Notes under the pieces: generated by a model
The model's input: the letters and a program-made list of their open reading frames with translations, nothing else
The model's database searches: none
Told to the model about the DNA's origin: nothing
Shown: piece by piece, positions 10,495 to 47,510 of the stretch
How the letters are laid out: each line of letters opens with the position of its first letter
Position numbering within the stretch: the stretch's first letter is position 1
Assembly (NCBI GenBank): GCA_021814835.1
Contig: JAKAHO010000001.1
Span: forward strand, 2,225-59,615
DNA: 57,391 nucleotides
Reading direction: 5' to 3'
Source of the DNA: a bacterium
GTDB lineage: Bacteria; Patescibacteriota; Minisyncoccia; UBA6257; GWB1-50-10
Translations under genes and position numbers: made by a program

Positions 10495-11451
10495 TTATTG
10501 CGCCAAAAAATCCACAAGAACGCGCGAAAGTTTTTGGGCATCGTGGCGCACCACGTCGGACTGGCTCACGACGTCATAATGCAATATTTTTTTCGCGTAT
10601 GAGTGCAGTGTTTTTTCGTCAACGATAACAGGATACGCGCGTTCAAAGGCGTATTTTTGGACAAGTTCGCCGCGCAATTCAGACGCGTTGTATACCAAAG
10701 CATCGAGGACAGGAAGGCCCAAATAATGCAGTAATTGCCTCACAAAATCGGACGCTTTAAAATGGTTGGTCTCTCCCCATTTTGTCATAGCATTCACGAC
10801 CATCACGGTCTTCGCGCAGCTCCGCACAACCGAGTCGGAAAAACCTTTCACGAGCATATTGGGAATAATGGACGAGTAGAGGTCTCCGGGGCCGAACACT
10901 ATCAAATCAGCCTGCTCTAACGCCTCCGCCGCACGGGGGTTGATGCGCGCGTCCGGGGAAAGAAACACTCTTTTAATTTTAAGCGCGCCGTCGTGCTTCG
11001 GGATATCAATATTCGTTTCTCCCTTAATTACCTCGCCGTTCTCAAGTTCGGCGCACAGATGCGCGTTATCGGTCGAAACGGGGAGCACAACGCCATTAAT
11101 ACCCAGGAGCTTGCCCGCGCGTTCAATGGCGTCGACTTCATTGCCTGCAACATCGGTAAGCGCTTGAAGAAAAAGATTGCCAAAGCTATGCCCGCGCAAA
11201 GAGCTGTCGGATTTAAAACGATAATTAAAAAGATCGCGGAGCGTTGCGTCGCCCTCATCGGGCGCAAGCGCCACGAGGCACCGCCGTACGTCGCCCGCAG
11301 GAAGCGTGCCGAACTCGTCGCGGAGAATACCCGAACTTCCTCCGTTATCGAACGCAGTAACAATAGCAGTAAGGTGAACGGGATGGTGTTTAAGCCCCTT
11401 TAATACGTTAAACGTGCCCGAACCTCCTCCCACCACTACGACTTTTTTCAT
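10495..11451 (-). CDS. yvcK: YvcK/CofD-family (UPF0052) protein
   Basis: MKKVVVVGGGSGTFNVLKGLK, AIVTAFDNGGSSGILRDEFG and LPAGDVRRCLVALA motifs. Start at 11451; the in-frame ATG at 11478 (MNSVRGLDG-) is an alternative. Confidence 0.85.
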   Translation of the reverse strand: MKKVVVVGGGSGTFNVLKGLKHHPVHLTAIVTAFDNGGSSGILRDEFGTLPAGDVRRCLVALAPDEGDATLRDLFNYRFKSDSSLRGHSFGNLFLQALTDVAGNEVDAIERAGKLLGINGVVLPVSTDNAHLCAELENGEVIKGETNIDIPKHDGALKIKRVFLSPDARINPRAAEALEQADLIVFGPGDLYSSIIPNMLVKGFSDSVVRSCAKTVMVVNAMTKWGETNHFKASDFVRQLLHYLGLPVLDALVYNASELRGELVQKYAFERAYPVIVDEKTLHSYAKKILHYDVVSQSDVVRHDAQKLSRVLVDFLAQ

Positions 11452-11478
11452 CCCATCTAAACCTCTAACGGAGTTCAT
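11446..11478 (-). repeat. degenerate/solo copy of the hairpin-element boundary in the yvcK 5' end
   Basis: Minus strand reads ATGAAC-TCCGTTAGAGG-TTTAGAT-GGG-ATGAAA: a left arm with 1 mismatch, then GGGATGAAA, with only about 20 nt between. Confidence 0.6.
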
Positions 11479-11532: not shown

Positions 11533-11683
11533 TACATATCCAGAGCGGTGGGGAGAGAATTGGCTCGATGATCCACCCAGCAACCCCTGACATACCTGTC
11601 AGGAAGGTGCTCCATCCAACCCCGCACGGGGGAAGATAAAGGTCGACACGCTTCCTCACGAATTCCGGAGGAGCTCTTTTTTT
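11533..11683 (+). promoter_or_regulatory. SAM-I (S-box) riboswitch with terminator expression platform
   Basis: UAUCCAGAGCGGUGGGGAGA..GGCUCGAUGAUCCACCCAGCAACC, a P3 hairpin CCUGACA/UGUCAGG, GGUGCUCCAUCC, a P4 hairpin CCCCG/CGGGG, and closing GAUAA. A UUCCUC/GAGGAG hairpin plus U-run follows at 11652-11683. The element lies directly upstream of metK. Confidence 0.8.
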
Positions 11684-11707: not shown

Positions 11708-12652
11708 ATGAACAACACAAAAACATGCGAGTTTGTCTCGCCGCAACACCCCGACAAGATATGCGACTTCATTGCGGACTCTCTGCTTGATGCATTTATG
11801 AAGAAGGACCAGAAATCGCGGGTCGCAATAGAGGTAATGGGCGGACACAAGCAGATAGTCGTGTCAGGAGAAGTAACAAGCAAGGCAAACATCGATATTC
11901 GCGCGATAACGCAGCAAATAGTCGGTGCAGATTTTCAGATACGTTCGATTGTTGAAAAACAAAGCCCCTTTATTGCGAAGGGTGTTGATACGGGCGGCGC
12001 AGGAGACCAAGGTATTATGATTGGGTATGCAACAAATGAAACTAATGTGCTTTTGCCGCGGGAATATGTGCTCGCACGCGACCTTTGCAAAACCATCTTT
12101 ACACAGTATCCGTATGACGGAAAAACACAGGTAACGCTTGAAAACGGAAATGTCCGCACGGTGGTCGCGAGTTTTCAAAATACAAAGTCGAACGACCTGT
12201 TAAAACTTGTAAAAAATAATATTACTGCGGATGAATATATTATTAATCCAGCAGGCGAGTGGGAGCTTGGCGGATTTGATGCGGATACGGGCATTTCAGG
12301 AAGAAAGATTGTGATAGACAACTATGGACCCGAAATCGGCATCGGCGGCGGATCATTTTCGGGAAAAGACTACACAAAAGTTGACCGAAGCGGAGCATAC
12401 GCTGCGCGCAAGCTTGCAGTTCTACTCCTCAAAAAACACAACGCAAACGCCGTACGCGTAAAACTTGCCTATGCCATCGGAAAAAAGGAACCAGTGATGG
12501 CGGTGGCGGAAATTGATGGGAAAGAAATAACAATAGGCGCAGAATACGACCTTTCACCGAAGGGAATATATGCAATGCTGAATCTCGGAAAGGTAAAATG
12601 GGCCGATACCTCCCGCTGGGGGCACTTCGGTAGAAACTTCTCCTGGCAATAA
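11708..12652 (+). CDS. metK: S-adenosylmethionine synthetase, short form (314 aa)
   Basis: HPDKICDFIADSLLDA, GAGDQGIMIGYA and GGGSFSGKDYTKVDRSGAY motifs. A SAM riboswitch lies upstream. Confidence 0.85.
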   Translation: MNNTKTCEFVSPQHPDKICDFIADSLLDAFMKKDQKSRVAIEVMGGHKQIVVSGEVTSKANIDIRAITQQIVGADFQIRSIVEKQSPFIAKGVDTGGAGDQGIMIGYATNETNVLLPREYVLARDLCKTIFTQYPYDGKTQVTLENGNVRTVVASFQNTKSNDLLKLVKNNITADEYIINPAGEWELGGFDADTGISGRKIVIDNYGPEIGIGGGSFSGKDYTKVDRSGAYAARKLAVLLLKKHNANAVRVKLAYAIGKKEPVMAVAEIDGKEITIGAEYDLSPKGIYAMLNLGKVKWADTSRWGHFGRNFSWQ

Positions 12653-22637: not shown

Positions 22638-22708
22638 TGGGGGATCGTCTAATGGTAGGACAGCGGCCTTTGAAGCCGTGAATCGGGGTTCGAATCCCTG
22701 TCCCCCAG
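22638..22708 (+). tRNA. tRNA-Gln (anticodon UUG)
   Basis: Hand-folded cloverleaf: acceptor TGGGGGA/TCCCCCA, D arm GTC..GAC, anticodon stem GCGGC/GCCGT with loop CTTTGAA, T arm CGGGG-TTCGAAT-CCCTG, discriminator G. CCA is not encoded. Confidence 0.9.
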
Positions 22709-22756
22709 CAATGTGCGGAAATGCTTATGAATTCTGTTCCCTCACTTCGTTAGCGA

Positions 22757-32430: not shown

Positions 32431-32444
32431 TCGCCTCAAACGGG

Positions 32445-32624
32445 ATGAAACCCGTTAGAGATTAACCAGTGATGTTTTACACGTACGTATTGCAAAACAA
32501 AAATAAACGTCTCTACACAGGGAAACGCTTTAACAATGGCAAGAGAAAAATTTTTAAAGTCGGGACTAGGCAAACGCTATATCAACAATAGATTAAAGCG
32601 TTTCCTATCTCTAACGGGATGAAA
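32445..32624 (+). mobile_element. start-codon-docked hairpin element E1 (180 bp, largest copy, carries GIY-YIG remnant)
   Basis: ATGAAA-CCCGTTAGAGAT ... ATCTCTAACGGG-ATGAAA, a 12-bp perfect stem. The right-hand ATG (32619) is the start codon of the downstream ORF. Confidence 0.75.
32472..32591 (+). pseudogene. decayed GIY-YIG nuclease ORF (39 codons) inside E1
   Basis: MFYTYVLQNKNKRLYTGKRFNNGKRKIF.. . FYTYVL-x8-LYTG matches the GIY..YIG spacing of small GIY-YIG nucleases. The rest of the domain is missing. Confidence 0.55.
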
Positions 32625-32933
32625 CCGCCGAAAAACGATTCGCGATATTCCTGGACGAGTCACGTCTTCGGAAAAATGTTGCACTACGGAATAGGCGAGG
32701 GGCGCATCCGCCGTATTATCCGCGCGCCCGCACGCGTTGAAGAGGGTGTTGCGGAAAATACCATTGCGGCAATGCAGCCGACAGGCGTAAGGGGCCAGCA
32801 CGAGATGTGGGTGATGTATAAGCTTGAAGGCGGAAAAATTAAAGTCATTACCGCATGGCGCTATCCCGGCAAGAGCTCCGCCCGCGATCCCATACCAAAA
32901 GAAATTCTCGCAGAGGTCCACCAACTTATTTAA
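32619..32933 (+). CDS. hypothetical protein, possibly DUF4258-like
   Basis: WTSHVFGKMLHYGIGEGRIRRIIRAP.. resembles the H-x3-R-x3-RGI-x5-I pattern of DUF4258. This is a weak call. Confidence 0.45.
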   Translation: MKPPKNDSRYSWTSHVFGKMLHYGIGEGRIRRIIRAPARVEEGVAENTIAAMQPTGVRGQHEMWVMYKLEGGKIKVITAWRYPGKSSARDPIPKEILAEVHQLI

Positions 32934-32975
32934 GTTTACTTAATTCGCTATTTTCAGTAGAATTCAATTCGTTAT

Positions 32976-33086
32976 ATGAATCCCGTTAGAAGTGCGGGCG
33001 GGACGAATATGCACAGCCATACATTTCAAAACATGCAAATTATGCCGTCGAAAAATACATTAACCATATACTTCTAACGGGATGAA
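32976..33086 (+). mobile_element. start-codon-docked hairpin element E2 (111 bp)
   Basis: ATGA-ATCCCGTTAGAAGT ... ACTTCTAACGGGAT-GAA, a 14-bp perfect stem. The right-hand ATG (33082) is the ychF start codon. Confidence 0.75.
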
Positions 33087-34125: not shown

Positions 34126-34911
34126 ATGGCCCACTACGAACTTCGCCTCGAATATTTTCAGGGACCGATGGACAAACTCCTCGAGCTTATCGAGGAGAAA
34201 AAACTCGAGGTCTCGCGGCTCAGCTTGGCGGAAGTAACCGACAGTTTTCTTAATTACTTAGACCAATTTAAGGTTGCGCTTGAGGCGGAGCAGGGCGAAG
34301 ACTCGCCGCTGTTTAACGCGCCCCCGGAACTCCTCGCGGACTTTTTAGTGGTTGCCTCGCGTCTCTTGCTCATCAAATCAAAGTCACTGCTCCCGTCGCT
34401 CGCGCTCTCAACGGAAGAAGAATCGGAAATACACGACCTTGAGCACCGCCTGAAGCTCTATCAGGAACTGAAAAAAACGCAGGAGCACGTCCGTACGTTC
34501 TGGGGAGAAACGCCGAAAATGTATGCGCGTGAATTTATGTCCGCGCACGAACCGCTCTTCTATCCGCCCTCAAACGCGACTCCCGCAACACTGCACGACG
34601 TCGCAATGAAAATGGCGGGAGATTTGGCACAGCTTTTCAAGCCGAAAGCTACCGTCAAAAACCAGATAGTAAACCTGCGCGCAAAGATTCAGGAAATTGC
34701 CGACCGTATTATTTCCTCTCCCACCACGTTCTCAAACCTTCACGGCGGAAAGGGAACGAGGAGCGACATTGTGGTGCTCTTCCTTGCGGTGCTCCACCTC
34801 ATCAAGCAACAGCTCGCGGACGTAGAGCAAACGGGTCATTTTGGAGAAATGACGATTGCGAAATCGAAGCCCGCCGAATACAATGAGAGACAAGGAAATG
34901 AATCCCGTTAG
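34126..34911 (+). CDS. scpA: segregation and condensation protein A
   Basis: FQGPMDKLLELIEEKKLEVSRLSLAEVTDSFL. Adjacent to scpB. The last codons and the TAG stop lie inside element E3. Confidence 0.85.
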   Translation: MAHYELRLEYFQGPMDKLLELIEEKKLEVSRLSLAEVTDSFLNYLDQFKVALEAEQGEDSPLFNAPPELLADFLVVASRLLLIKSKSLLPSLALSTEEESEIHDLEHRLKLYQELKKTQEHVRTFWGETPKMYAREFMSAHEPLFYPPSNATPATLHDVAMKMAGDLAQLFKPKATVKNQIVNLRAKIQEIADRIISSPTTFSNLHGGKGTRSDIVVLFLAVLHLIKQQLADVEQTGHFGEMTIAKSKPAEYNERQGNESR

Positions 34912-35001
34912 AGTTTTACAAACATAAAATACTAACAATTCTTGATATAAATATGGCCGTGAAAAATGAAAAAAATAATTGTAAAACTCTAACGGGATGA
35001 A
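34898..35001 (+). mobile_element. start-codon-docked hairpin element E3 (104 bp)
   Basis: ATGA-ATCCCGTTAGAGTTTTACAA ... TTGTAAAACTCTAACGGGAT-GAA, a 20-bp perfect stem. The right-hand ATG (34997) is the scpB start codon. Confidence 0.8.
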
Positions 35002-40297: not shown

Positions 40298-40400
40298 ATG
40301 AATCCCGTGAGAGTTTTGGAAACATAAATATACGAAAAACAAAAATATTTTAAAGGTTTGATAAACGAAAATGATAATTGTAAAACTCTAACGGGATGAA
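40298..40400 (+). mobile_element. start-codon-docked hairpin element E4 (103 bp)
   Basis: ATGA-ATCCCGTGAGAGTTTTGGAA ... TTGTAAAACTCTAACGGGAT-GAA, a 20-position stem with 2 mismatches and 1 G-T pair. The right-hand ATG (40396) is the murG start codon. Confidence 0.8.
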
Positions 40401-47407: not shown

Positions 47408-47510
47408 ATGAATCCCGTTAGAGTTTTTATAAGCACGACATATTAACAACTAAAAAAAGAAAAAAGTGATAATTAAAAAAATAATAATTGTAAAACTCTA
47501 ACGGGATGAA
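47408..47510 (+). mobile_element. start-codon-docked hairpin element E5 (103 bp)
   Basis: ATGA-ATCCCGTTAGAGTTTT ... AAAACTCTAACGGGAT-GAA, a 16-bp perfect stem. The right-hand ATG (47506) is the pilC start codon. Confidence 0.8.

Follow-up and report, generated by a model that had tools for sequence, protein, structure and literature searches.

A decayed GIY-YIG nuclease gene in a family of small, probably mobile cassettes at bacterial start codons

The stretch of Patescibacteriota DNA analysed here, called the window (57,391 nucleotides; assembly GCA_021814835.1, contig JAKAHO010000001.1, positions 2,225 to 59,615, forward strand), carries five short elements, E1 to E5, that are bounded by the same inverted arms. 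The largest, E1, is best explained, at a probability of about 0.72, as a dead copy of a tiny mobile cassette that inserts at start codons, borrows its own start and stop codons from the insertion site and gives rise to miniature copies without an open reading frame (ORF), the cuts needed for movement probably being made by the encoded nuclease. Intact cassettes from other genomes are about 277–290 bp long, and their sole gene encodes a single-domain GIY-YIG nuclease of 85–88 aa that resembles UPF0213 and Slx1. The element has the form 5'-Y CCCGTTAGAG ... CTCTAACGGG R-3' and is flanked by a 4-bp target duplication. The preferred target is TGAA after an A, that is, a start codon followed by AA, and the cassette is co-oriented with the host gene. 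Loci and proteins from elsewhere are cited by handles such as L005 and P0001.

E1 and its intact relatives

The outer ends of the E1 arm cores span 168 bp (Table 1). The ORF that opens at ATG 32472, with a stop ending at 32591, translates to MFYTYVLQNKNKRLYTGKRFNNGKRKIFKVGTRQTLYQQ and preserves the GIY-YIG motif spacing, FYTYVL-x8-LYTG; its residues 1–17 are identical to those of P0001, the closest protein, which comes from an unrelated groundwater metagenome, and of P0003. A second frame translates to MAREKFLKSGLGKRYINNRLKRFLSLTG followed by a stop, which is the conserved C-terminus (last 27 codons) of the same protein family. Because this frame runs through the right arm, the arm is coding sequence: CTCTAACGGGA plus TGA gives the C-terminal S-L-T-G-stop of the nuclease. 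DNA alignment with intact copies places in E1 an 18-nt deletion (codons G-Y-T-N-D-L) and a frame-shifting deletion of 89 nt. Both the catalytic His and the third strand were lost with the latter, and the frameshift split off the part bearing the Glu, leaving E1 without the full set of catalytic Arg, His, Glu and Asn expected of an active enzyme. Given the two deletions, the frameshift and the loss of the His and third strand, E1 is a dead, internally deleted pseudogene copy that has kept both ends of the gene. The left arm, the spacer and the first codons are the same in E1 and L005, without a difference, and identity between the two is 80% over aligned columns, with the short outer flanks counted in. 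The left ATG of E1 still opens a leader, MKPVRD followed by a stop, and the two helices described below are both retained.

A sequence-only reading had already described the sequence of E1, its arms, the ORF MFYTYVLQNKNKRLYTGKRFNNGKRKIFKVGTRQTLYQQ and the left flank, all of which were found again in the window, and had taken the ORF for a decayed GIY-YIG gene, an identification that the homologs described below bear out. The alignment with full copies that it proposed located the two gaps. It had also described an ORF that stops short of the segment with the catalytic residues; the ORF is indeed short and the His is gone, but the gene is not truncated, since two internal deletions and a frameshift account for its state and the C-terminal third is kept. 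The second frame, the coding nature of the right arm and the position of each copy exactly on a downstream ATG had escaped it.

The left boundary of E1 has a further feature. The flank CCTCAAACGGG at 32434–32444 has a single mismatch to the right arm CTCTAACGGG, and it is plausible that, as had been suggested, two insertions are stacked here, the solo arm being left from an earlier element and E1 having entered the TGAA beside it, because real stacking, in tandem or nested arrangements, is seen in L020, L057, L072 and L086. The sister genome L012 is without about 10 nt at the position of the solo arm (TAATCGGAATGAAGCC). The 14-nt direct repeat AACGGGATGAAACC, reported earlier at 32439–32452 and 32613–32626, is present at both positions; from the flank sequences, it can be read as 7 nt of the older right arm, the 4-bp duplication and 3 nt of coincidence.

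Table 1. Elements, arms and remnants in the window
Feature	Position	Strand	Description
E1	32450-32619	+	Internally deleted GIY-YIG cassette, 170 bp counted from its first nucleotide to its final A; by alignment to L005, L017 and L004
E1 left arm core CCCGTTAGAG	32451-32460	+	
E1 left arm CCCGTTAGAGAT	32451-32462	+	5' half of helix 1
E1 right arm core CTCTAACGGG	32609-32618	+	
E1 right arm ATCTCTAACGGGA	32607-32619	+	3' half of helix 1; codes (L)-S-L-T-G
Left TGAA duplication copy	32446-32449	+	With A32445, the ATGAA at which the downstream gene originally started
Right TGAA duplication copy	32620-32623	+	A32619 + TG = ATG of the downstream 104-aa gene (32619-32933)
Solo right-arm remnant CCTCAAACGGGA	32434-32445	+	Plausibly an older, mostly deleted element, with E1 on the TGAA behind it
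Frame-1 remnant ORF	32472-32591	+	N-terminal GIY...YTG motifs MFYTYVLQNKNKRLYTG, then out-of-frame residues and a stop
Second-frame remnant	32536-32622	+	Family C-terminus (...REKFLKSGLGKRYINNRLKRFLSLTG, stop); TGA stop overlaps host ATG
Helix 2, 5' half GGAAACGCTTTAA	32521-32533	+	Codons R-K-R-F-N; the 89-nt deletion starts directly 3'
Helix 2, 3' half TTAAAGCGTTTCC	32593-32605	+	Codons L-K-R-F-L
E2	32981-33082	+	ORF-less miniature, 102 bp, arms CCCGTTAGAA / TTCTAACGGG, on the ychF start codon
E3	34903-34997	+	Miniature, 95 bp, 16-bp repeat, between scpA and scpB; scpA stop TAG inside left arm
E4	40303-40396	+	Miniature, 94 bp, on the murG start codon
E5	47413-47506	+	Miniature, 94 bp, on the start codon of a pilC-like gene, with a pilB-like gene on its other side
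Relic CTCCGTTAGAGGTTTAGATGGGA	11451-11473	-	23 bp; 11447-11478 with both (A)TGAA copies

The separate E1 peptides, including the 39–40 aa ORF product, gave no significant GIY-YIG match in Pfam or NCBIfam because they are too short, and the two fragments when fused reached PF01541 only below threshold (E=0.019). The fused fragments nevertheless retrieved 270 proteins in a homology search, with E-values down to 2e-13. The best 120 of these 270 are all 85–88 aa long with PF01541 as their only domain, and those with named sources are mostly from Parcubacteria/Patescibacteria. Thus the match to PF01541 that had been suggested as a check failed for the short peptide alone but held for longer homologs, full-length relatives exceeding the gathering score at E=8e-15 and 1e-13. 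Every relative retrieved has RFLSLTG, or a sequence close to it, at its C-terminus, and several open with MFYTYVLQNKNK. Among 24 diverse intact members, Y4, Y16, H30 and E62 never vary, and conservation of R26 and N76 is 90% or more. An AlphaFold model of the full-length protein (pLDDT 92.6) has the order beta-beta-alpha-beta-alpha-alpha and ends in a long basic helix. The closest proteins by sequence are the UPF0213 members 1zg2 and 1ywl (E=2e-7), and the closest by fold (Foldseek) are 1zg2, 1ywl and Slx1 (7cq3), with E=7e-5 and, for Slx1, a root-mean-square deviation of 2.1 Å over 71 columns. At E<=1e-10 the family comprises 3,112 cluster representatives. Many database members are 20–500 residues longer than the 86-aa core (P0121, P0123, P0128, P0132 and P0135 among them), which suggests that they are read-through fusions with neighbouring genes, or that the shared start and stop signals have misled gene calling. 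A scan of viral contigs with the protein profile found no relatives, hence no sign of carriage by phages.

The arms lie on the intact genes as well. In L002, L004 and L005, the left arm stands 10–11 nt upstream of the ATG, and the right arm forms the last four codons, TCT CTA ACG GGA, followed by TGA. A protein-based scan of metagenomes yielded 80 loci, in which 75 full-length genes gave 67 distinct arm pairs; most of the other 8 also have an arm, or arms that covary (L045). In all, about 70 of the 75 genes have both arms. The parent cassette that the sequence-only reading had supposed, a GIY-YIG gene carried between these same arms, therefore exists. The two arms pair with each other over 14 bp (helix 1), and 98.6% of cells are paired in the 67 copies. 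Both sides have changed in 8 of the 14 pairs, a result to which none of 500 shuffles and no slid register comes close. The right-arm codons are frozen (Ser TCT in 51/51, Leu CTA in 55/56, Thr ACG in 56/56); elsewhere in the nuclease gene, Thr and Gly codons have an entropy of about 1.8–2.0 bits. The final Gly is GGA or GGG, tracking T or C at element position 1.

When 58 full elements were folded together with RNAalifold, helix 1 was found again, along with a second helix within the ORF. In helix 2, GGAAACGCTTTAA (codons R24–N28) pairs with TTAAAGCGTTTCC (codons L78–L82), and compensatory changes fall at synonymous positions: pair 106:271 is AU in 41, GC in 12 and CG in 4 elements, pair 109:268 is CG in 35 and UA in 18, and pair 112:265 is UA in 33 and CG in 13. 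From the covarying helices and the frozen synonymous sites, it would therefore follow that a folded single strand, either mRNA or single-stranded DNA, is functionally important. In L038, L039, L042 and L066, the R-G-P-F-E codons GGCCCGTTCGAG, which lie in the ORF some 132 nt before the right arm, closely resemble the left arm CCCGTTAGAG; this may be due to chance, or may mark a point of deletion or recombination.

Insertion sites, target duplications and start codons

Arm motifs with at most one mismatch occur 12 times in the window, against 2.4 expected, and none of 100 shuffles reaches 12. These matches define the five copies, all in one orientation, and a 23-bp relic on the minus strand. 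ATGAA stands on both sides of each copy, and the right-hand ATG is the start of the 104-aa gene, ychF, scpB, murG or the pilC-like gene. ATGAA occurs 176 times in the window and stands at the start of 8 of the 23 genes called in this genome region; all copies are nevertheless on gene starts and co-oriented with them. Behind this bias there may be targeting, or selection against insertions elsewhere, or the two together.

Two sister genomes found through ScpA, L011 (Candidatus Jorgensenbacteria, about 81% nucleotide identity) and L012 (about 70%), are free of arms over the 20 kb taken from each. The site of E4 reads ...CAGCTCATC ATGAA CATTCGC... in L011, and likewise in L012; that of E3 reads ...CCATC ATGAA TCCTGAT... 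in L011, and likewise in L012; and that of E1 reads ...TAATCGGA ATGAA GCCTCC... in L012. Each of these empty sites has a single ATGAA with homologous flanks on both sides. The elements were thus gained by insertion after divergence from the sisters, since the 5–6 copies are specific to this lineage and the sisters keep clean empty sites. Between the 104-aa gene and ychF, L012 (3503–8991, against window 32822–33082) has about 5.5 kb of extra DNA, and the sequence upstream of ychF differs in L011 also; this junction is a rearrangement hot spot.

The boundaries of the element were determined from 102 distinct arm-to-arm elements, 76 of them full-length and 26 short. A perfect 4-nt direct repeat stands just outside the termini Y...R in 55/102, and with the frame shifted by 1–4 nt in only 0–2/102. 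TGAA accounts for 37 of the 55 perfect duplications; in total there are twelve different 4-mers, the others being TGAG, TAAA, TAAG, CTGG, TTAA, CAGA, TGGA, TTCA, TTTA, CTTA and CCCG, the last of which sits within an arm of another element. The boundary lies after the terminal purine because elements of the C...G type (L028, L029) read ATGAA on the left and GTGAA on the right. A 5-bp duplication of ATGAA was considered and replaced by one of 4 bp with symmetric Y...R termini, which fits both the C...G-type elements and the non-TGAA duplications. More than 50 unrelated insertion sites have only (A)TGAA in common. Terminal inverted repeats, a duplication of fixed length, and presence or absence with intact empty sites, features by which insertion sequences (IS) and miniature inverted-repeat transposable elements (MITEs) are recognised, are all found.

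Insertion at this target has consequences for the reading frames on either side. At the right end, the terminal A and the TGAA together complete the Gly codon GGA, supply the stop TGA and restore the ATG of the host gene in an ATGA overlap, and the downstream ORF starts exactly at this overlap in 46 of 57 detectable cases. At the left end, the target A and TGAA are followed by TCCCGTTAGAG, which gives ATG AAT CCC GTT AGA in frame one, TGA in frame two and TAG in frame three; an upstream gene is terminated because of the stops in the other two frames. Of 34 full elements with a left ATG or GTG, 24 have it in the frame of the nuclease ORF (p=1e-5). In 16 of the 34 there is a stop-free run-through, and in 11 a leader of 6–7 codons ends 4–9 nt before the nuclease ATG. 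Database representatives open with MNPVRD..., MNTVRV... or MNPVRAF..., some of them without an internal Met. In many copies, then, the ORF reaches from duplication to duplication, and by its codons both inverted repeats would be translated, the left as N-P-V-R and the right as S-L-T-G.

Short copies are also found in other genomes, where ORF-less elements of 39–132 bp keep the arms and the duplication; those in L041 and L061 still end in ...TCCTATCTCTAACGGG, the last nuclease codons. Because such intermediates retain these codons, an origin of the ORF-less copies by internal deletion is supported. The earlier proposal that the short copies of the window are non-autonomous derivatives of the cassette thus agrees with ORF-less copies and intermediates in many genomes, but E1 itself is not the parent of E3–E5, because the repeat of these, at 16 bp, is longer and of another sequence, and their AT-rich interiors are unrelated. 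E3–E5 share this inverted repeat and their last ~25 nt or so, their pairing extends to 16–20 bp, and the short copies are predicted to form long terminal hairpins, with folding z-scores of -3.8 to -8.1. In E2, a 33-codon ORF opens at the left ATG and has its end in the right arm, with 1 nt left between it and the ychF ATG; in E3–E5, the left end opens ORFs of 9–12 codons. E3 has changed the C-terminus of ScpA (window 34898–34911), as the frame crosses the left ATGAA and is closed by the TAG of the arm (...NESR, stop); in L011, ScpA is terminated by TGA within the ATGA overlap. A scan round E1–E3 for promoters and terminators found nothing above the shuffled expectation, and the notion that the miniature copies supply either was given up.

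The relic on the minus strand is in frame, and would add nine codons, MNSVRGLDG, to a YvcK/CofD-like gene if its left ATG is used. On its other side, it adjoins an S-adenosylmethionine (SAM) riboswitch of the opposite strand (RF00162, 55.6 bits; 11533–11642, plus strand), which lies directly upstream of a 314-aa ORF (11708–12652), an S-adenosylmethionine synthetase gene as read from its sequence. A search of the window with Rfam 15 at the gathering score placed no family on the elements and matched only this riboswitch and a tRNA-Gln (UUG; 22638–22709), the sole tRNA in the 57 kb.

Movement of the cassette and competing explanations

The spread of the cassette looks transposon-like rather than homing-like, because the sites are unrelated, the termini are inverted repeats and the 4-bp duplication varies in sequence; the enzymology that follows is a proposal. 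The nuclease would make the cuts required for movement. The paired arms may serve the enzyme as a branched or hairpin substrate, and its cuts in the flank may be staggered by 4 nt; host repair or ligation would finish the insertion. Translation that begins at the host initiation site would run through the nuclease ORF and on to the host gene by termination-reinitiation, which would curb polar damage in operons. Hopping of ribosomes over the hairpin, from one ATGAA copy to the other, was weighed as well and is not put forward, as no observation bears on it. Both helices would act in a folded single strand, whether mRNA or single-stranded DNA.

Several observations weigh against this explanation. 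To our knowledge, strand transfer is beyond a hydrolytic GIY-YIG nuclease alone, and we know of no transposase of this kind. A six-frame motif scan of the window found no further GIY-YIG gene and no intact copy. The AT-rich interiors of E3–E5 are 57–62% alike and have no similarity to the nuclease gene, so that the descent of these copies from a GIY-YIG cassette would rest on the arms, the duplication and the intermediates in other genomes. Perfect duplications are kept by only 55 of the 102 elements. The comparison of junctions with the sister genomes covers E1–E4, the E5 site lying in none of the sister stretches, and at the E2 site only the right flank is homologous, the left flanks being non-homologous. 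An excess of G.U over A.C pairs, taken as a test of RNA against DNA folding, is only suggestive, at 34 against 17 (p=0.012), and is reduced to 26 against 17 (p=0.11) when the pair that includes target nucleotides is set aside, so that it does not separate the two.

Spread of the homing-endonuclease type, which the sequence-only reading had favoured, is not borne out. Under this explanation, which we regard as unlikely, a free-standing homing endonuclease gene cuts the empty allele and is copied in by recombination repair, and the arms are merely an RNA hairpin that regulates translation of the nuclease. GIY-YIG is a classic type of homing endonuclease, the genes are placed among conserved host genes of the same orientation (interleaved, for example, in the cox operon of L002), conserved long-range helices overlap the ORF, and NCBIfam gives a weak, sub-threshold match to a group I intron endonuclease. 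Homing, however, does not produce duplications or inverted termini, and here 4-bp duplications of 12 sequences are found, also round ORF-less copies and nested insertions. A long shared target (about 14–40 bp) is absent, the flanks at the more than 50 sites being unrelated save for (A)TGAA, and the protein has no DNA-binding domain beyond its 85-aa core.

Similarly unlikely is a domesticated system resembling Ssn, in which the arms and short copies are host repeats bound or cut by the nuclease as single-stranded DNA (for example, to modulate DNA uptake or recombination), the joint arrangement of gene and repeats is a relic, and the elements are now immobile. There is precedent in a 94-aa GIY-YIG protein with site-specific cleavage of single-stranded DNA beside hairpin repeats, in an NTS-ssnA-NTS arrangement (PMC11893778). 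The 10-bp core is invariant while the proteins are 65–89% identical to P0003, the closest full-length relative of E1, which suggests recognition by the protein, and the arms are kept while the interiors of E3–E5 drift. On the other hand, 5–6 lineage-specific copies with clean empty sites indicate gain after divergence, the closest structures are UPF0213 and Slx1, and the published SRM pattern is scarce here. That pattern, HGTCWYN(0-2)YYVSBRHN(0-5)WNVSBRGN(0-2)RNCYNB, is not matched anywhere in the window; the 449 kb of family loci contain 4 matches (L004, L059, L086), none of them at an element boundary. Domestication would, moreover, be compatible with past mobility.

It is also conceivable, though very improbable, that the elements are ordinary MITEs moved in trans by a conventional transposase (for example, of the DDE type) encoded elsewhere, with the GIY-YIG gene as a passenger. 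Terminal inverted repeats with a short target duplication are a hallmark of DDE elements, and the window is without an intact nuclease copy. The full copies of about 290 bp carry no transposase, however, because between the arms there is room only for the ORF of 85–88 aa, and no transposase domain was found in the 23 called genes of L006. It would also be unlikely for a passenger gene to have its conserved C-terminus encoded by the right repeat, and the start and stop of its ORF built from the duplication. Finally, chance resemblance of E1 to GIY-YIG genes, for which only the lack of a significant Pfam match to the 40-aa peptide speaks, is already refuted by the 270 homologs and by the match to L005.

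The cassette may represent an unrecognised class of prokaryotic transposable element, widespread in the candidate phyla radiation (CPR), in which an 85-aa Slx1/UPF0213-like nuclease acts on its own paired ends and lands on start codons as a "translationally spliced-in" selfish gene with MITE offspring; we put this forward tentatively, at somewhat less than even odds. A literature search that combined GIY-YIG with MITE, inverted repeats, CPR, target duplication and UPF0213, and that covered few subscription journals, found no earlier description of the cassette.

Related systems and biological meaning

The closest parallel is the Ssn/NTS system, in which a 94-aa GIY-YIG enzyme cleaves single-stranded DNA beside a hairpin repeat, the repeats bracket the gene and dispersed copies number in the hundreds; an origin from a mobile element was put forward by its own authors (Chenal et al., 2025; PMC11893778). 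Common to Ssn/SRM (cd10448) and the cassette are a single-domain GIY-YIG protein of about 90 aa (here 85–88 aa), IS-like bracketing by cognate inverted repeats, and ORF-less intergenic copies. In contrast to the compact hairpins of 20–50 nt on each side of the Ssn gene, the cassette has a split long-range pair that encloses the gene, one half of which is coding, and its protein is nearest to UPF0213/Slx1 by sequence and fold. Target duplications, empty sites and start-codon capture are found here and have no counterpart in the available part of the Ssn account, where CPR bacteria also go unmentioned (PMC11893778). Hairpin repeats that come close to identity with the Neisseria NTS consensus TGTCATTCCCGCGAAGGCGGGAATCCAG do occur in Parcubacteria-type contigs (L059 6132–6159, L086 2719–2794 and L004 2489–2516), the one in L004 with an inverted partner about 30 nt downstream.

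MITEs and their parent IS (Correia/NEMIS, REPIN-RAYT) resemble the cassette in their inverted termini, short duplication, deleted non-autonomous copies, intergenic location, hairpin transcripts and nesting. Here, however, the sole protein is a hydrolytic GIY-YIG nuclease and not a DDE, DEDD, HUH, serine or tyrosine enzyme, the repeats lie within the ORF, and insertion is at start codons in fixed orientation. Free-standing GIY-YIG homing genes (T4 seg, I-TevI-type) share the catalytic superfamily, the form of a small selfish gene among co-transcribed host genes and RNA structure round the ORF; they differ from the cassette, which has no DNA-binding domain or long target and has inverted termini, a 4-bp duplication, non-allelic spread and ORF-less derivatives. 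The structure-selective nuclease Slx1 cleaves DNA with branches or stem-loops, an activity that, by analogy, would fit recognition of paired arms. We know of no UPF0213 or Slx1 protein that is encoded inside inverted repeats or is mobile, and the basic C-terminal helix KRYLKNRLKRFLSLTG is peculiar to the cassette family.

Other small GIY-YIG genes lie near the family member in L002 (2042–2335 and 4535–4783, minus strand). One is a different 97-aa gene between cox1 and cox3, with a weak T5orf172 match, 37% identity to the cassette family and GC-rich, hairpin-like flanks; with a third GIY-YIG gene nearby, two kinds of GIY-YIG genes interleave one respiratory operon. In the same bacterial group, non-intron insertions with GIY-YIG ORFs have been described in CPR rRNA genes (Tsurumaki et al., 2024; PMC11270868). 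Their sites are rRNA genes, and arms, duplications and start-codon targeting go unmentioned in the available part of that report, but the GIY-YIG ORFs may be the same phenomenon.

If the nuclease drives movement, a GIY-YIG-based mechanism would join the short list of prokaryotic modes of DNA transposition, and small nucleases of the Ssn kind would gain a mobile-element origin with direct genomic support. The enzyme and its pair of arms could also serve as a compact sequence- or structure-specific DNA tool, as has been proposed for Ssn. Gene calling is affected too, since the element gives rise to N-terminal extensions such as MNPVR..., to fused ORFs and to changed C-termini (that of ScpA here, for example). 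The cassette is an example of parasite economy, in that both inverted repeats are coding, start and stop come from the target duplication, and host initiation is restored via the ATGA overlap, and it accounts for the numerous tiny "GIY-YIG nuclease family protein" genes and the unexplained 40–130 bp inverted-repeat spacers in the operons of streamlined CPR genomes.

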